Of a stretch of DNA of 64,000 nucleotides, positions 6,724 through 37,981 are shown piece after piece. The number at the start of each line of letters is the position of its first letter. Position 1 is the stretch's first letter. Source of the stretch: Octopus vulgaris (taxonomy: Eukaryota); assembly GCA_951406725.2 (NCBI GenBank), contig OX597817.1:164362001-164426000 (forward strand). The letters run 5' to 3'. The position numbers and the translations under genes were made by a program. The notes below the pieces were generated by a model that was not told the DNA's origin, made no database searches, and was given only the letters and a program-made list of their open reading frames with translations.

Positions 6724-9128
6724 TCATGAATATACCAACACTAGTGCCTCTGAGGGTAATATTCTCTGGGAATGCACAAAAGCCCTTTTCATAATATCAC
6801 TATCAGACATATAATTCTTACATAACTCTATTAAGTGATCACAGCTATTAAATGATGAGTGGTAACAAATAAACATTGCTAAATTTGCTTCAAGCATCGA
6901 TGTCTTATCATTTTGGGCTTTAATAAAATTGGCAAGAGGAATCATTTGCTGTGGAGTTGATGCCTTATGTTTCTTTGCTTCACAGTGGCTTCTTTCGGAA
7001 TTTTTGCTAGTACAACTTATTTTTTTTTTGCTCATTATAATGTAGTGGGAAGCAAGAAAATAAATTGGTGGCGAGCCGGGTAAAATGCTTAGTGGTATTT
7101 CTTCTGCCATCACGTTCTGAGTTCAAATTCCACCGAGGTCTACTTCGCCTTTCATCCTTTCGGGGTCAATAAATTAAGTACCAGTTACACACTGAGGTCG
7201 ATGTAATCGACTTAATACCTATGTCTGTCCTTGTTTGTCCCCTCTATGTTTAGCCCCTTGTGGGTAATAAAGAAATAGGTATTTCGTCTGCCGTTACATT
7301 TTGAGTTCAAATTCCGCCAAGGTCTACTTCGCCTTTCATCCTTTCGGGGTCAATAAATTAAGTACCAGTTACACACTGAGGTCGATATAATCGACTTAAT
7401 ACCTATGTCTGTCCTTGTTTGTCCCCTCTATGTTTAGCCCCTTGTGGGTAATAAAGAAATAGGTATTTCTTCTGCCATCACGTTCTGAGTTCAAATTCCA
7501 CCGAGGTCTACTTCGCCTTTCATCCTTTCGGGGTCAATAAATTAAGTACCAGTTACACACTGAGGTCGATGTAATCGACTTAATACCTATGTCTGTCCTT
7601 GTTTGTCCCCTCTATGTTTAACCCCTTGTGGGTAATAAAGAAATAGGTATTTCGTCTGCCGTTACGTTTTGAGTTCAAAATCCGCCGAGGTCTACTTTGA
7701 CTTTCATCCTTTCGGTGTCAATAAATTAAGTACCAGTTACGTACTGGGGTCAATGTAATCGACTTAATACCTATGTCTGTCCTTGTTTGTCCCCTCTATG
7801 TTTAGCCCCTTGTGGGTAATAAAGAAATAGGTATTTCGTCTGCCATCACGTTCTGAGTTCAAATTCCACCGAGGTCTACTTCGCCTTTCATCCTTTCGGG
7901 GTCAATAAATTAAGTACCAGTTACACACTGAGGTCGATGTAATCGACTTAATACCTATGTCTGTCCTTGTTTGTCCCCTCTATGTTTAGCCCCTTGTGGG
8001 TAATAAAGAAATAGGTATTTCGTCTGCCGTTACGTTTTGAGTTCAAATTCCGCTGAGGTCTACTTTGACTTTCATCCTTTCGGTGTCAATAAATTAAATA
8101 CCAGTTACGTACTGGGGGTCAATGTAATCGACTTAATCCCTTTGTCTGTCCTTGTTTGTCCCCTCTATGTTTAGCCCCTTGTGGGCAATAAAGAAATAAG
8201 AAAATAATTTGAATGATTAATAAAAATATAAAATTGAAAACACAGCTTATCAGTTTGCCGCAAATAATTCTTTCATTTGCTGTCAACAATTCTTATGTTT
8301 GCTACTAACAAATTCTTAAGGTGAAGAATACTGATTCAGAGATGCAGGGTGGCCAACTTATAAATGGAAAAGTAAAATCTGCAGAAATCCTAAAACTGTG
8401 TTCAGATATAAACCTGGGAACATCACATTTCGCTTCCAATCTTACATTTAATATCTATTGCTAAAACCACAAATACAACTACAATATTTGAAGAAGAAAA
8501 AAAGTAAGTAGAACTATAAAGGGGAGACCGCCGCCATCCCCGTAGTTCTACACAAGATATTTAATCCAAATGGAAAAACACAGGTCTGTTTTAAAAGAGT
8601 CAAACTGAAAGTAAATCAGTCAACCTGTCACGATAAAAACTCATCTCTACAGAATAAAGCATTGTTAGGACGAATTTCCATGCTTTCATTCTTTGCAACA
8701 AATTTACGTTATTGTGTAGTGAGTTCAGGTGCTGACATGAGTTATCTTTTCCCCCTCCTCCCATCAGCACGGCTCTGTATCTAAGCGGCAGGAGTGGGGA
8801 TGGAAAAGTTCATAACTTGATAAACTTTATTTTGATAAACTTCCATTTGAAGTTTCATGAAAGTGAAAGAAAAATTCAACAAAAAGCTGATAGTGCTAAA
8901 ATTTGGATGTAAGATACTTTGACGAAAGGGGAAAAGGAGGAAAAAGAAAAAAAAAAATGGTAACTATTGTGGAAATAGCATGATCAGAGAAAAATGCTAA
9001 AAAAAAATGCTGAATAAAATTTTAAACCTGCTATTTCCCCTGCTAAATGCTAGATTCAAAAATTTTTCTGCTAAATGCTGAAAAAAAATGCAAGATCTAG
9101 CATAAAATATGCTAAATTGGCAAACCCT
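6724..9128 (-). mobile_element. Decayed hAT-type DNA transposon interrupted by a SINE array
   Basis: Minus-strand peptide HCEAKKHK...EANLAMFICYHSSFNSCDHLIELCKNYMSDSDIMK resembles the hAT/ZNF862-type transposase N-terminal region. hAT-like end AGGGTTTGCCAATTTAGCA at 9128 (minus) and CAGGGTGGCCAAC at ~8345. Confidence 0.6.
7068..8200 (+). repeat. Tandem array of 6 x ~184 bp units of a tRNA-derived SINE
   Basis: Units start GGTATTTC at ~7094, 7278, 7462, 7646, 7830 and 8014. Each has a B-box-like GAGTTCAAATTCC and a GCCTTTCATCCTTTCGGGGTC core. Flanked by an AAGAAAATAA duplication. Confidence 0.93.
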
Positions 9129-11909: not shown

Positions 11910-13781
11910 CAGCGAGCTGGCAGAATCGTTAGCACGCCGGGTGAAATGCTTAACGGTATTTCGTCTGCCGCTATGTTCTGAGTTCAAATTCCGGCAAGGT
12001 CGACTTTGCCTTTCATCCTTTCAGGATCGATTAAATAAGTTCCAGTTACGCACTGGGGTCGATATAATCGACTTAATCCGTTTGTCTGTCCTTGTTTGTC
12101 GCCTCTGTGTTTAGCCCCTTGTGGGTAGTAAAGAAATAGGTATTTCATCTGCCGCTACGTTCTGAGTTCAAATTCCAGCAAGGTCGACTTTGCCTTTCAT
12201 CCTTTCGGGGTCGATTAAATAAGTACCAGTTACGCACTGGGGTCGATGTAATCGACTTAATCTGTTTGTCCTTGTTTGTCGCCTCTGTGTTTAGCCCCTT
12301 GTGGGTAGTAATGAAATAGGTATTTCATCTGCCGCTACGTTCTGAGTTCAAATTCCAGCAAGGTCGACTTTGCCTTTCATCCTTTCGGGGTCGATTAAAT
12401 AAGTACCAGTTACGCACGGGGGTCGATGTAATCGACTTAATCCGTTTGTCTGTCCTTGTTTGTCGCCTCTGTGTTTAGCCCCTTGTGGGTAGTAAAGAAA
12501 TAGGTATTTCATCTGCCGCTACGTTCTGAGTTCAAATTCCAGCAAGGTCGACTTTGCCTTTCATCCTTTCGGGGGGTCGATTAAATAAGTTCCAGTTACG
12601 CACTGGGGTCGATGTAATCGACTTAATCTGTTTGTCTGTCCTTGTTTGTCGCCTCTGTGTTTAGCCCCTTGTGGGTAGTAATGAAATAGGTATTTCATCT
12701 GCCGCTACGTTCTGAGTTCAAATTCCAGCAAGGTCGACTTTGCCTTTCATCCTTTCGGGGTCGATTAAATAAGTACCAGTTACGCATTGGGGTCGATGTA
12801 ATCGACTTAATCTGTTTGTCTGTCCTTGTTTGTCGCCTCTGTGTTTAGCCCCTTGTGGGTAGTAAAGAAATAGGTATTTCATCTGCCGCTACGTTCTGAG
12901 TTCAAATTCCAGCAAGGTCGACTTTGCCTTTCATCCTTTCGGGGGTCGATTAAATAAGTACCAGTTACGCACTGGGGTCGATGTAATCGACTTAATCCGT
13001 TTGTCGCCTCTGTGTTTAGCCCCTTGTGGGTAGTAAAGAAATAGGTATTTCATCTGCCGCTACGTTCTGAGTTCAAATTCCAGCAAGGTCGACTTTGCCT
13101 TTCATCCTTTCGGGGTCGATTAAATAAGTACCAGTTACGCACGGGGGTCGATGTAATCGACTTAATCCGTTTGTCTGTCCTTGTTTGTCGCCTCTGTGTT
13201 TAGCCCCTTGTGGGTAGTAAAGAAATAGGTATTTCATCTGCCGCTACGTTCTGAGTTCAAATTCCAGCAAGGTCGACTTTGCCTTTCATCCTTTCGGGGG
13301 GTCGATTAAATAAGTACCAGTTACGCACTGGGGTCGATGTAATCGACTTAATCTGTTTGTCTGTCCTTGTTTGTCGCCTCTGTGTTTAGCCCCTTGTGGG
13401 TAGTAAAGAAATAGGTATTTCATCTGCCGCTACGTTCTGAGTTCAAATTCCAGCAAGGTCGACTTTGCCTTTCATCCTTTCGGGATCGATTAAATAAGTT
13501 CCAGTTACGCACTGGGGTCGATGTAATCGACTTAATCCGTTTGTCTGTCCTTGTTTGTCCTCTCTGTGTTTAGCCCCTTGTGGGTAGTAAAGAAATAGGT
13601 ATTTCATCTGCCGCTACGTTCTGAGTTCAAATTCCAGCAAGGTCAACTTTGCCTTTCCTCCTTTCGGGGGTTGATAAAACAAGTACCAGTTACGCACTGG
13701 GGTCGATGTAATCGACTTAATCTGTTTGTCTGTCCTTGTTTGTTGCCTCTGTGTTTAGCCCCTTGTGAGTAGTAAAGAAAT
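11910..13781 (+). repeat. Tandem array of 10 x ~171-186 bp units of the same SINE
   Basis: One full head (GCGAGCTGGCAGAATCGTTAGC) then units joined as AAAGAAATA|GGTATTTC. The whole array is flanked by a GGTATTTTTTAT(A/G)TTGTCAAG duplication. Confidence 0.93.
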
Positions 13782-14029
13782 AGGTATTTTTTATGTTGTC
13801 AAGTTACATCTGACTATCAGATTTAACCCCCTTTCGAATAGTTTTCATTTGTCTGTCTTCCTTTGTATTTTTTTTTTCTTTTACTCTCAACATAAGTCAT
13901 TCAGTGGTTAAATACAGAAATTCAGCATTTTGTATTGTAATTCTTCCTTCCTCTGACAATGATGCATCACTTGACAAGTGAGTTTCACCCTCAAGTTACA
14001 TGTAAGTAGTTATGATAAGGGATCTTGTA

Positions 14030-33150: not shown

Positions 33151-36140
33151 CGTGTGCGTGCGTGCGTGCATACACACACACACATGTAGCTTGCCATTGA
33201 TTATCAGTAGAGAAACAAATTTCAAAATATTACATATGCTTCCTTATGGTATGTATTGCTATTAAGTATATTGTTTATAAGTTTATAATATATATTAGTA
33301 TTACACAGCACGTTACAAATTTCCAAATGTCATTGATGACCCTTGAAGCTTTTTTTTTCTTTTTTTTTTATACATAATCAGAGAAGAGCAGTGCCCACAG
33401 TCCTTTATAGAGCCTCTTGAGACTAGCAAGAGGGGTAGGAAGGTATCCTCAGACTGGATACATAACCAAAATGTTTGCAACAAATGATTTCGATTAAAGA
33501 TACTGAAAGACAGGTCATAGATTAAGTCAACCAATCCAGTAGTCTACGGCAGGATTTGAACTTGGAATGCTAAGATCTAGAGGAAATACCACAAGGGATC
33601 CTATTCAATGCTGAAACGATTCTGCCAGTCCACCACTCTAGACTGATACTTTAGTTACCAGCTCTGGAAGAATGTAAGGCAAAGTTGACCTTGCATGTAT
33701 TTGAAACCAGAATGCAGGCCAGAATAAATAGCACAAGGCAATCAGTTATAACCCCCCCCTCCACCTAGTCATTACTTCCCATCTAGCTTTTATAATACAT
33801 CATTTTCATTATCTAAGACAATGGAATTTAAATTATTGCAACTTACAACAGAAATATCTTCTGTTATTCAGTTTTTATTTATGTCTAGCATTAATTAACT
33901 TTCCTTTATGAAGTTCATTAATTGTATAATTATCCTTATTTCAATCATAATTACACACACACACACACACAAACACATCAATTTTACATCTGCTTTTCCA
34001 TAAGGGAATGGATTGAGTGCTTGGTAATATTGTCATGGTCCAAATCATCTTACACTTAGTAACAGAGATCAGCCCACTTTGGTGTGGTATGCTGCCAACA
34101 CTAGAGAGACTGCTATTCCATTTTGAGCATGGATACCCTTGTTATTACCAACCACTTTACAGTGTACCAGAATGCATTTTATTATATCACCAGCATTACA
34201 AGTGGTTGCCCTATGTGAAGAGGACCAAAAATCTCCACTACTCTGTATCGGTTCTTATTCAGTTACTGCCCTTTAAGACAGACTTGTAAAGTCCAGATCT
34301 CATTCATATGTTCCTTTGATTCAGAAGATGAAGGCTTTATCTATCAAATGGAAATGACAAGGTGGAGATTTGATGTGCCTTGACAAAAAAAAAAGTTGTC
34401 TTTGTTACATGGATATAAATAGAAAGAAAGCTATGGAAAAGGGAGCTACAGAGATATTGTTGATGCGAGTGGGGCTGTCTCTAGATAGGTATATCAAGAA
34501 GCTGCAAGCAAGTTGTACATTTGATGACAAAGGCAGGTGATGTTCTTTTATTCTCTCATCTGGTTTAACATCACTACTTGACTCTTATTTGCCTTTAACA
34601 AAGTTCACTTCATTACAAGCATTCAGGCCAGGTCACCAATCAGAAAATAATTCAATATCTTGATGTGCTCTTTCTTACTGCATCCAACAACTCATGTGGT
34701 GAGGTCTCTTCCTCCCTTTCTCTTTGTCAGTCTTGGAGTTAATACAGTAAAGTCATGAGTGCTGCCTTTTTCACTCTTGACTGAGCCATAACAAAAACTT
34801 ATGGCAGAATTTGAACTCTTGATCTGTAGATCACTGGATATTTTCAGAAAAGCTTAACTATTCTTGATCAGACATTTACATGTGCCTGTGTAAACATGTT
34901 ATTACTTAGATAATTGTGAGTGTGCCAATATTTAGAGTTGATTCTGGACAAATTTTTACCACCTTTCATCATCCTCATAATCATTTGATATCCATGTTCC
35001 ATGCTAGCATGGGTTGGATGGTTTTACAGCACCCAATGAGCCCCAAGGGCTGCATCATGCTCCAGTGTTTGCTTTGGCATGGGTTTTATGACTGAATGCC
35101 TTTCCTAACACCAACCACTTTACAGTGTGTACTGGGTGCTTCTCTTCATGATACCAACACTAGTGAGATCATAATGAAGTTTACATGACTACAAACCCCA
35201 AGGGTCTACTTTTATGCTAGGTGATGAAGAGTATGAGAGAAAAAAGTTGGACTAGAACAGGTTTTTTGCTGAAGAGGAGTTACCTTCAAGATTCAAGGCA
35301 GGTAGGAGTGGGTAGAGCAGAGGGGCCACAAATAAGTGTTGGGGAGTAGGTGATGTCTCTTTCTCTAATAATCATCGACAACTCAGTCTGTTACTCTCAG
35401 CCTTTAATACTTGACTGCTACCTATTCTATCAACCTTAAAATGGTGAAAGGCAAGGTTTGAAATCCATATATAAGGGAGTGTAACTAAATACTGCGCGAT
35501 TTTATTTGTAAACCACTCTACCACTTCTGCCCTCCATCATCATCTATTTACAATAATATAATTGCTGTGTTTTTCCAACCGTGGTGTTTTTGCTCCATTT
35601 ATTTGCCCCATTACCTATTCCCTCCCTCCTGTTGTAGCTGTAGCCAGGCAATTATTAACAATAGCATTTAGTTGCTATCAACAGTCTAAGTAACTGAACT
35701 GGTGATCTCCACCTTATTACAGATCAATAATCTACGTCTATTCATTGGCTCGTTCAGCTTCACTAAATACTGTTACTTTCCAGTTGAGTTAGAATTACAA
35801 AATGGTTCCATCTTTAATAGCAGTATACATTGTTTGCCTTAATTTATATGTGATTCCAGAACAATCTAGTAAAATATAGAAGGAAATTAGCTAATAGCTT
35901 ATGTGGTTTTTTGGGGGTGGTTTTTATAATAAAAGTACTTCATTTCTTCATACTTTGTAGAAAGATACAGAGCCAAACCTGAAATAATAAATTTCTTCTA
36001 CTACTTTTCTTATAGAATATAAAAAATTACGGAGATGTACTCGCATAGCAAGTAATTTGATCTGAGATCGTGGAAGGTGTTTATAAGCCATTTAAGAAAC
36101 ACACAAAAGCCGTTCGATTCACTTCAACATTTAAGTTTAA

Positions 36141-36190
36141 TTTGTCAAAATATTTTCGTCGCTAAAATCTGCGACCTGTTCACTGACAAA
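36141..36190 (-). ncRNA. Hammerhead ribozyme motif with G3:C8 swapped core
   Basis: Minus strand TTTGTCA-GTGAACA-G-GTCGC-AGATTTTA-GCGAC-GAAA-ATATT-T-TGACAAA: 7-bp stem I, 5-bp stem II and palindromic stem III. Confidence 0.65.
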
Positions 36191-37981
36191 AATCCGTGCT
36201 GCATCTCGGATGCAGCACGGATATAAAAAATTATTACTAAAATAAGACGGTGCCAGGTGAATGTTTCCATCTTCTGAGTTCAAATATTACCCAGATCAAC
36301 ATTAGTTTTCATTCTTCTGAAGTTGGTTAAAATATGTTCCAATCATATACCAAATTGATTTGGTCATTTGTCAAAATTGTTCAAAAACTCATACAATGTA
36401 AATTGAAATATCAGACTGAAAACAGAAGGAAGGCAGTTTAAATTTTGTCTTATTTCAGGTGTAATAACACTTCATCAGGAAAAAATGGAGGATGGGTGTT
36501 GAGCTGGTATCTTTTGCTCAGATATGTGGGAAGGGATTGTGACATGTACAGCATGGTATTGTTACACTGACCAGTTTGCCTCATGTAATTCTCACCTGTT
36601 GTTTGATGGTTTCAATTTAATAATGAATATGGCTTTTTTAATCCTTAAATTGCCTATGTTACATTCTGTTACTTTCCAGTTGAGTTAGAATTACAAAATG
36701 GTTCCATCACCATCATCATTGTTTAACCTCCGCTTTTCCATCTTGCATGGGTTGGATGGAATTTATTGAGGCACGTTTTCTGCAGTTGGTTGCCTTGTTT
36801 GTTACCAACCCTCACCCGTTTCTAGGTATGGTAATAGTTTCCCATGGCCAGACATGTTCTTGCAGAATATTGGAAATGAAGTACACTCACTGGGTGTGTG
36901 ACAGTGATACTCATTTACAACTACCATACTATGTCAAGACAAGGAGACACACACACACTCATATGACAGGCTTTTTATAGTTTCCATCTACCAAATCCAC
37001 TCACGAGACTGGTTGACCTGGGAACATAAGAGAAGACATTTTCCTAAGGTGGGACTAAACCCTAAACCATGTGATTGGGAAGCAAACTTCTTATCCACAG
37101 AGCCACATCCATGCCTAGGATGTTGACTGTAAAGTCCTGAGTGTGGCATTTCTCTGGGTATTTTTTGGATGATGTGTTTATTTGCACATGTTCTTTGATA
37201 CCAGTGTGTGTAGCTTTCAGATGGTGCTTCCTAAGAAGGAACTGCCACATTTACACTGAAACTACATTTAGTTGTTTGTGCTTTTTCAGTTTTCCATAGT
37301 GGCTCTTTTAGTTGTATTGCTCTGTATGAGCCTGAAGTTGTCAAGCCAACAAGTGATTTCTTAGCTCATTATGACAAGTTTAATCTGTTTCAGCAGTTGT
37401 GCAGACATGTGTTTCATACAACATAGCCTTCAGTTCTATATACATATTTCTTCTACCATTGTCTTTCCTTTAATCAATGATACGTACACCTGTCTCACCT
37501 GAACAATCAATCACAACAAAGCAGCCTCCATATAGATATTCTGCTTGCTAGAAATAGTAGCTAAATCTTCCCCATCATCATTTAACATCCGCTTTTTACA
37601 CTGGCATGGGTAGAACAGTTTGATAGGGAACCAGCAAGCCACGAGGCTGCATCGAGCTCCAATGTCATCTTTTGACATGGTTTTTAAGGCTAGATGCCCT
37701 TCCTGACACCAACCACTTCACAGTGTGTACTGAGTGCTTTTTTCAAGCCACAAGCACAACTGAGGTTGCCATGTAATTCATAAGATAGAAAAGAACAGAG
37801 AAGGAATTCTCTTGAAACCTAGTAAGGTATGTTGGATTCACACTGCCTGATTGGATTGCATTTATTTTTTCATGTCTTTCTGTAAAAAGTTCTCGTCACA
37901 TGGTACCATGTGATGGTACCATGTTAAAATCACCCATGCTGGTGTCACATAGAAAAGCACCCATACATGTGCCATATATAA

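Follow-up and report, generated by a model that had tools for sequence, protein, structure and literature searches.

The insertion at 36017–36233 and its parts

The window analysed here is a stretch of 64,000 nucleotides of Octopus vulgaris DNA (GCA_951406725.2, contig OX597817.1, positions 164,362,001 to 164,426,000), within which an insertion spans positions 36017–36233. The following features were assigned to it:

36017–36029, no strand: target-site duplication, copy 1 (13-mer, from sequence; its last three letters are also the element's long end)
36027–36206, minus strand: copy of a pLTR end, corresponding to +1 to +207 of the inferred transcript leader with a 27-bp deletion (alignment to L153)
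36027–36091, minus strand: ORF start (ATG at 36091–36089), truncated where the long 3' end falls; the same ATG opens the RT-protein frame in L193
36069–36073, minus strand: point at which the 27-bp deletion was joined, between two 4-base repeats; the site of the short 3' end was lost with it
36141–36190, minus strand: type I minimal hammerhead fold (fold, relaxed descriptor, covariation across families)
36192–36222, no strand: 14-bp hairpin made of the leader's first bases and a short inverted copy, a remnant of an inverted second arm
36207, minus strand: G absent from the element's own UTR, which has C or T there; likely cap-derived
36221–36233, no strand: target-site duplication, copy 2 (13-mer, from sequence; its first two letters are also hairpin arm)

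The preliminary description had proposed a 13-bp target-site duplication and a terminal 14-bp hairpin. The 13-mer is present on both sides, but as three of its letters coincide with the element end and two with the hairpin arm, the true duplication measures 8–13 bp; other insertions in unique flanks have duplications of 9–14 bp. The hairpin arms (36192–36205 and 36209–36222) pair perfectly, but they are no fixed terminal feature of the element: they are what remains of a second, inverted arm, which in most copies measures ~140 bp. Other copies have this arm in full, around centres that vary. When compared to the pLTR of the ORF-bearing copy L153, 180 of 207 positions of the window copy aligned, with one mismatch, and relative to a young copy it differs by the 27-bp internal deletion and one substitution. 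The ~60-nt tail between two alternative 3' ends of the element falls within 36027–36091.

A hammerhead fold with a G3:C8 core

As previously proposed, the minus strand folds as a type I hammerhead with a GUGAACA core (36183–36177; G3 at 36183, C8 at 36178), a stem I of 7 bp (36190–36184 with 36147–36141), a stem II of 5 bp (36175–36158), the GAAA and a stem III formed by the palindrome AAUAUU (36154–36149). U17 lies at 36148, and the cut is predicted between 36148 and 36147. An extra G (36176) between A9 and stem II, absent from the preliminary description and a hallmark of Penelope hammerheads, makes the junction 8 nt long rather than 7. The 61-nt hammerhead fold gave z = −3.4 and the whole stretch z = −4.4, and a relaxed-core descriptor search returned one G3:C8 match in the window versus none in 60 shuffles, arguing that the fold is not due to chance. 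Helix III was unformed in the monomer, where its pair probability was 0.0, and folding as two strands gained just 1.9 kcal/mol over two monomers. The hammerhead is predicted to cut itself just slowly, likely aided by a partner RNA or by the element's protein.

Minimal type I hammerheads occur in the pLTRs of metazoan Penelope-like elements (PLEs; Cervera and de la Pena 2014, PMC4209133), and the suggested kinship with these was borne out by the extra nucleotide at 9/10.1 (G), the G10.1–C11.1 pair, the GAAA, the palindromic helix III and a NUH triplet (UUU). The hammerheads described in PMC4209133 share with the octopus element the pLTR position, the extra nucleotide at 9/10.1, G10.1–C11.1, a short palindromic helix III (with a 2-nt insertion like that of Drosophila Penelope), copies paired in opposite orientation and a common U17. 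Whereas the preliminary description regarded UUU as normally a poor triplet, U17 is ordinary in PLE hammerheads, being present in 24 of the 56 rows of the 2014 alignment (UUU in one). Unlike in that alignment, where G3 occurs in none of the 56 rows and U3 in three, the octopus core is G3:C8, and thus departs from CUGANGA while retaining a Watson-Crick 3:8 pair; its extra G also lies outside the H consensus given there, G being found in one of the 56 rows. Natural covariation of the 3:8 pair is shared with U3:A8 hammerheads (Perreault et al. 2011, PMC3088659; Schistosoma Cercyon PLEs, PMC4209133), but in the instances reported there the change amounts to two transitions that keep the pyrimidine–purine order, whereas G3:C8 takes two transversions and reverses it. 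No natural G3:C8 hammerhead was found in the literature searched, in which Lunse et al. 2017 was not covered. The chemistry is unsurprising, as the double mutant was already known to be partly active: a protein-dependent PLE hammerhead is rescued in part by C3G/G8C (Frangieh et al. 2024, PMC11167929).

In agreement with the expectation that standard models would miss the swapped core, Rfam gave no hammerhead match on the window; it likewise gave none on three loci with canonical sister motifs, so that the negative result on the window is uninformative. For ribozyme searches, descriptors fixed on CUGANGA miss whole families, and the G3:C8 core has more than 6,600 matches in one genome (6,616 exact matches genome-wide).

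The insertion is the end-piece of a Penelope-like element

The G3:C8 pair is fixed in the family (56 of 65 arms in a set chosen without regard to the core), and most copies are short, non-coding pieces. The preliminary description had been right about a mobile family, but this family consists of end-pieces of an autonomous PLE and does not stand alone. In longer copies the parent ORF lies ~1 kb upstream, and in 29 of the 30 top GIY-YIG loci the G3:C8 motif is located 922–1,235 nt downstream. In a tandem copy the pLTR sequence runs into the RT/GIY-YIG ORF, and the identical sequence ends ORF-bearing copies. Direct and inverted pLTRs are present in L187 and L193, the latter with the layout pLTR–ORF–pLTR plus an inverted copy. 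The parent L187 has an open frame of 1,025 aa with a YVDD motif and a GIY-YIG domain scoring 25.4 bits (Pfam cut-off 22.6); the RVT_1 profile had no match on L187 and stayed below cut-off for its relatives, the RT showed 21% identity over 332 aa to the RT of another PLE, and a PDB search gave no match at E up to 1. On inspection by eye, the endonuclease has the CCHH motif, with its two Cys lying between GIY and YIG and its two His further downstream. Judged from such motifs by eye, the protein resembles the Nematis EN+ PLEs (Craig et al. 2021, PMC8557442) in its C-terminal GIY-YIG, CCHH and short CX2-5CxxC linker, with a linker-to-next-Cys distance of 7 residues as in the three Nematis rows shown. 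Many insertions lie in TA runs, and duplication length is variable at these AT-rich targets.

An independent small non-autonomous family of the retrozyme or MITE type with a terminal hairpin, as first envisaged, would fit the prevalence of short non-coding copies, but the insertion has the very sequence that ends the autonomous element, which refutes this for the window copy, and asymmetric ends, variable centres and the lack of head-to-tail arrays in the loci viewed make it highly unlikely. Non-LTR retrozymes are head-to-tail non-coding monomers, whereas the window holds a single copy and the loci viewed hold inverted or single arms; MITEs have matching terminal inverted repeats and a fixed duplication, whereas here the ends differ by ~60 nt and both centre and duplication length vary. 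As another candidate parent, an abundant 781-aa Neptune-like PLE from the Pfam GIY-YIG search was rejected, as the arm was unmatched in it save for one nested fragment; the nested arm fragment in L089 proved to be an insertion into an unrelated MITE. A metagenome scan for relatives in other species yielded 227 pattern matches, none of which was confirmed.

The G3:C8 swap is derived and old

Sister families B, C and D have homologous folds with C3:G8 and compensatory stem changes, indicating that the G3:C8 swap is derived. In the stem covariation check, 7 of 13 pairs changed on both sides, a score reached in none of 500 shuffles and far above that of slid controls, bearing in mind that related sequences can beat a shuffle control without structure. 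Among 12 aligned rows, the 3:8 pair is C:G in nine and unpaired in one. The old relative family E is also G3:C8, with a compensatory change in stem I, and differed at 0/23 positions of the core, stem II and helix III versus 38/130 elsewhere, a conservation inflated by the choice of family E for its core and computed with a misoriented row (L397) that leaves the majority letters unaffected. The swap is shown by these family comparisons to be derived and old, with core and stems kept since.

Within the family, lineage-level changes affected 5 of 8 columns of loop II and 0 of 26 stem columns; core plus stems did not differ significantly from the spacer (1/37 versus 5/49 columns, p = 0.23). A pair-broken G3:G8 form has spread among source-type copies: of the old ORF-linked copies in which the core could be seen, 6 of 16 have it. 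In sister family B A9C is fixed, most sampled copies having C9, and C17U has been fixed recently. An intact core is therefore not needed to transpose. The counts of short matches (~154 for G3:G8, from 40 of the first 100 of 386, versus ~15 for C3:C8, from 7 of the first 100 of 209) made G3:G8 attractive as an evolutionary intermediate, but the ORF-end tree disagrees: all six G3:G8 rows fall into one mid-age clade mixed with G3:C8, and the oldest and youngest clades are C8. Secondary loss is therefore the simpler reading of G3:G8, though not a settled one, since the root of the tree is on a long branch and all six rows are on contig C16; a 200-nt arm tree was almost without support. Copies at least 95% identical to a young copy comprised none of 29 G3:G8 arms versus 16 of 54 G3:C8 arms.

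One genome thus holds related families of recent activity whose cores are canonical, swapped, pair-broken or A9C, so that cleavage rate can be compared with transposition history, and the natural C3:G8, G3:C8, G3:G8 and C9 cores side by side would form a ready-made activity series.

Copy ends point to a probable capped, uncut template

Genome-wide, the letter before the start was G in 797 copies, A in 106 and C or T in 1,068. The 797 copies start with a non-encoded G at one position, 23 nt before core position 3, and G was found at the start of 32 of 43 non-extended arms. This G is likely a copied RNA cap. Fifteen of 30 sampled arms end near +1 and none at the predicted cut site (+60), suggesting that the RNA was likely copied uncut; the 3' ends of the 30 arms form two clusters, 14 short and 16 long. 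In sister family B, 40 arms from a sample biased to ORF-bearing copies showed no clear 5' pile-up. These ends suggest that the short copies were likely made from capped, uncut RNA. On balance, we consider it probable that the window insertion is the end-piece of an autonomous PLE encoding RT and GIY-YIG, likely copied into DNA from the first ~207 nt of a transcript with a cap, and that it holds a G3:C8 hammerhead fold predicted to cut slowly.

The 5' boundary could alternatively be a 3' splice site, the short copies then deriving from spliced RNA with a first exon ending in GAG, similar to the Drosophila virilis Penelope pLTR intron, which is described as ending at helix I (PMC4209133). A branch-point-like motif, a pyrimidine tract and AG do precede the boundary, but the upstream letters are variable (17 different 4-mers in 30 arms, 20 of which adjoin an inverted arm), the sense UTR of the copies scanned has no GAG|GT donor, the junction of one candidate donor had no genome match, and L352 has a single G directly after an 11-bp duplication, leaving this explanation quite improbable.

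The ribozyme might also cut mainly for translation of the ORF, removing the cap and an upstream ATG for a cap-independent start while uncut RNA serves as template. The motif does belong to the 5' UTR, following the inferred start (+1) and preceding the ORF ATG (+116); a further ATG, at +3, comes before the cut, and viral 5' UTR type I hammerheads are reported to drive translation by cleavage (PMC13725137). The transcript nevertheless appears capped, so that ordinary scanning would be open to it, and we regard a mainly translational role as improbable. An ATG at +3 is, moreover, probably too close to the cap to matter.

Proposed mechanism

With capped, uncut RNA as the likely template, transcription would start in the pLTR, 23 nt before core position 3, and the element's protein would nick AT-rich DNA with a stagger of ~9–14 bp. 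Reverse transcription may then start inside the RNA at ~+145 or +207, as in vitro for another PLE, and on the 5' pLTR would give a short cDNA that reads across the uncut hammerhead as far as the cap, usually followed by the addition of a second arm in inverted orientation. With priming sites located 3' of the cut site, fast cutting would sever the template, so that a weak, conditional ribozyme would be tolerated or favoured; occasional cutting would most likely trim tandem read-through transcripts to unit length. Tentatively, a PLE lineage may have crossed a two-transversion fitness valley to G3:C8, selected as a slow, protein-gated switch, and the thousands of short insertions may be cap-ended, strong-stop-like cDNAs, a genome-wide in vivo record of internal priming on capped, uncut RNA.

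It is also conceivable, if rather unlikely, that the motif descends from a hammerhead and no longer cuts, the fold being kept as a structural or protein-binding leader element or overlapping promoter elements just downstream of the start. Transposition of the G3:G8 sub-lineage, C9 in most sampled family B copies and cDNAs that read through the uncut motif would agree with this, as would the location of the motif (+17 to +66), a region whose sequence could be under constraint from downstream promoter elements. Against it, both core changes relative to the canonical form restore a Watson-Crick 3:8 pair that would be superfluous if the role were played purely by stems or by the DNA, the other catalytic positions all match in families A and E, and the youngest, most amplified lineage is G3:C8.

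The octopus element shares several features with Poseidon of Anolis carolinensis (PAc; PMC11167929), whose hammerhead is dispensable for insertion in vitro and in which the pLTR overlaps the ORF start, two internal RT starts bound a tail, targets are AT-rich and uncut RNA is the main template; for the octopus element the last point is likely, judging from copy ends. Both the cap-like G and the fact that no sampled ends coincide with the cut site would lend in vivo support to the in vitro finding of uncut RNA as template. According to the same report, G3:C8 in PAc is a laboratory mutant, partly active and protein-assisted, whereas in octopus it is natural. The two elements probably belong to different clades. 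In PAc the ORF starts inside the ribozyme and the tail measures 30–40 nt (PMC11167929); in octopus the ORF starts 50 nt after the ribozyme and the tail measures ~60 nt.

The window copy folds as a hammerhead with a swapped core pair

Sequence reading and folding placed a hammerhead on the minus strand, with the stems, GAAA and palindrome all as put forward in the preliminary description:

36190-36141, minus strand: hammerhead with stem I of 7 bp, core GUGAACA (canonical CUGANGA), stem II of 5 bp, GAAA, the palindrome AAUAUU and U17, the letter at the predicted cleavage site

The core letters had been read correctly, but one additional G between A9 and stem II had been overlooked. The claimed hairpin was found in the window copy, which retains just 14 bp of the inverted arm (an arm being one copy of the element's end-piece) and differs from a young copy by a 27-bp deletion and one substitution. 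The 13-mer taken for a target duplication is indeed repeated, but the true length is 8-13 bp, since 5 of the 13 letters coincide with the element's own ends. A relaxed core descriptor, suggested as a check, gave one G3:C8 match in the window versus 0 in 60 shuffles. The expectation that standard models would miss the swapped core held in that Rfam gave no match in the window, but canonical sister motifs were missed too (3/3 loci). Other features of the window were:

35764-35812 and 36660-36708: 49-bp direct repeat flanking the insertion (96% identical, 896 bp apart)
50781-50736, minus strand: second, unrelated minimal hammerhead with the canonical core CUGAAGA, one added A, a C-G helix III and U17, as is typical for a different Penelope-like element (PLE) family
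7094-8198 and 11955-13789: one tandem array each, built from ~184-bp units and related to a dispersed repeat with many copies in the window

The insertion is the end of an ORF-bearing element

An exact 18-mer spanning the swapped core had 6,616 matches in the 2.8-Gb genome (control, 0). The copies viewed of this family (family A) were mostly asymmetric palindromes with a variable centre and one arm ~60 nt longer than the other, flanked by (TA)n or AT-rich DNA and duplications of 9-14 bp. Their upstream extension, matched by 486 copies, crosses a microsatellite-rich UTR of ~1 kb and reaches the end of an ORF with a GIY-YIG domain. At one locus (L187) an open frame of 1,025 aa carries YVDD, a CX3CX2C linker, CCHH and a GIY-YIG domain over the Pfam cut-off. 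At another (L193) a truncated inverted copy is followed by pLTR-ORF-pLTR, pLTR denoting the terminal repeat that carries the hammerhead; the arm does not stop at its long end but enters the ORF. The first ATG of this frame is the counterpart of window 36091, and in this copy the frame carries one stop and one frameshift. Given this layout, and a G3:C8 motif 922-1,235 nt downstream of the GIY-YIG domain in 29 of the 30 best loci for the domain (the 30th had none within the stretch examined), the sequence is the end of a PLE rather than the small separate family first proposed. The parent element's arrangement matches the partial tandems, inverted copies and one-sided tail of PLEs described by Craig et al. 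(PMC8557442), and its linker resembles that of Nematis in a by-eye comparison.

A recently active Neptune-like PLE (L091-L100; 781-aa open frame, (TA)n targets) was also seen, in whose terminal repeat the hammerhead descriptor gave no consistent match, as was a ~400-bp MITE family (L101-L120) with imperfect 14-bp terminal inverted repeats and, at first look, 2,571 candidates; one of its copies contains a fragment of the Penelope tail.

The motif covaries with sister families

The same context with a canonical core gave 27 matches (control, 1), the 10 viewed being old, decayed relatives, and a broader canonical-type pattern gave 4,926, the majority from family B, a C3:G8 sister. Family B is a young PLE with a 1,312-aa ORF whose protein matches that of the parent element at 55% identity over 815 aa; in the family B hammerhead the change of A9 to C9 is fixed, and C17 has become U17 in the youngest copies. 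Its ORF includes a long Asn-rich insert, and its loci L219-L223 (e.g. G000:C5:115838500-115848400) are very young, with 99% identity among top copies.

The proposed test of stem covariation bore out the fold: in an alignment of 12 rows taken from four families, both partners had changed in 7 of 13 pairs, including the tertiary pair 3:8 and pairs in stem I, stem II and helix III. None of 500 shuffles scored as high, a result that kinship of the sequences can inflate, and slid controls paired 20-46% versus 90%. Judged by sequence, the family A motif is a true hammerhead homologue. It shares the extra nucleotide, G10.1-C11.1 and palindromic helix III that are hallmarks of PLE hammerheads according to Cervera and de la Pena (PMC4209133), whose 56-row alignment, machine-read from the PDF and counted by us, has G3 in 0 rows, U3 in 3, U17 in 24, UUU in 1 and G as extra nucleotide in 1.

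The swap is old and retained

A search for other G3:C8 contexts (491 matches; control, 197) yielded family E (33 matches), an old relative whose 25 aligned copies have a median divergence of 18.5% from their majority. Family E differs from family A at 0 of 23 positions in the core, stem II and helix III and at 38 of 130 others (p = 0.001), the core conservation being partly built in because copies were chosen by core; in its stem I, G-C replaces U-A. When family A arms were anchored outside the core (65 distinct arms out of 82), 56 had G3:C8, 7 G3:G8 and 2 other letters. Lineage-level changes fell on 5/8 columns of loop II, 0/26 of the stems, 1/11 of the core and 5/49 of the spacer; the loop differed from stems plus core (p = 0.0003), the spacer not significantly (p = 0.23). 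These comparisons indicate that the G3:C8 swap is old and has been retained.

Natural U3:A8 hammerheads (PMC3088659), G3:C8 as a laboratory variant (PMC11167929, PMC3884650) and hammerheads in pLTRs (PMC4209133) are already known; a review (PMC6765202) and a retrozyme preprint (10.64898/2026.07.22.740005) were also consulted. No natural G3:C8 case was found in the literature searched, outside Lunse et al. 2017, where such a case would most probably appear.

Many short copies begin at a cap-like G

We placed the putative transcript start (+1) 23 nt before position 3 of the core, with the predicted cut at +60. The 30 arms sampled were anchored on the 3' side of the ribozyme and included some that came as a pair from a single insertion; 15 ended within a few bases of +1 (one placed by eye, its alignment having run into a TA run) and the remaining 15 were scattered from +7 to +75. 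None of the 30 ended at +60, the nearest being +55 and +57, two arms of one insertion. Genome-wide, the letter before +1 was G in 797 cases, A in 106 and C or T in 1,068; the element's own UTR has C or T, and arms lacking a continuation into the UTR had G in 32 of 43. At locus L352 a lone G separates an 11-bp duplication from +1. An extra G is what reverse transcriptases leave when they copy an RNA cap, and the +1 site resembles an initiator. Splicing as the origin of this boundary predicts constant upstream letters, and none was observed. Family B showed no clear 5' pile-up in 40 arms (a sample biased to ORF-bearing loci), so that the cap-like pattern is reported here for family A.

Internal priming has been shown for PAc, the Poseidon element of Anolis carolinensis studied in vitro (PMC11167929). 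If family A were likewise primed internally, at +145 and +207, any pLTR transcript would give a short cDNA that crosses the uncut ribozyme and ends at the cap; such priming on capped uncut RNA would account for the abundance of short copies and for the G at window 36207. Both presumed priming sites are on the 3' side of the cut, so rapid cleavage of the 3' ribozyme would disconnect them from the ORF. A ribozyme that cuts slowly and conditionally, the reading we somewhat favour, would fit the conserved fold, the re-formed 3:8 pair and templates that were left uncut.

Pair-broken forms bear on the need for cleavage

G3:G8 was ~10 times commoner than C3:C8 (~154 vs ~15, extrapolated from the first 100 matches listed of 386 and of 209, respectively) and exceeded the 0.5% per-site background for that change. 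It was present in both arms of 2 insertions and in a single arm of 2 others; among 20 old ORF-linked copies fetched, 6 of the 16 whose core could be seen had it. An ORF-end tree rooted on family B, a weak root, put all 6, every one from contig C16, in a single mid-age clade mixed with G3:C8, and C8 in the oldest and youngest clades. Most simply, the pair would have been lost secondarily in one sub-lineage that was still transposing.

This lineage and the core changes of family B count against a strict need for cleavage, and the G3:G8 and C9 lineages agree with a fold that has no cutting activity, although we consider that explanation rather unlikely. A role of the ribozyme in translation, for which viral 5' UTRs offer a precedent (PMC13725137), we rate as more improbable still. 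By published accounts, G8C alone slows cleavage 100,000-fold and C3G rescues it partly (PMC8495972); single mutants of a PLE ribozyme are dead, the double mutant is partly active, only with protein, and ribozyme mutations leave insertion in vitro unaffected (PMC11167929). New in this analysis are the cap-like G, the finding that no sampled arm ends at the predicted cut, and where the G3:G8 sub-lineage falls in the tree. Of the old ORF-bearing copies picked (L318-L337, 20 in all, ≤88% identity), 12 are on contig C16, all 6 with G3:G8 among them.
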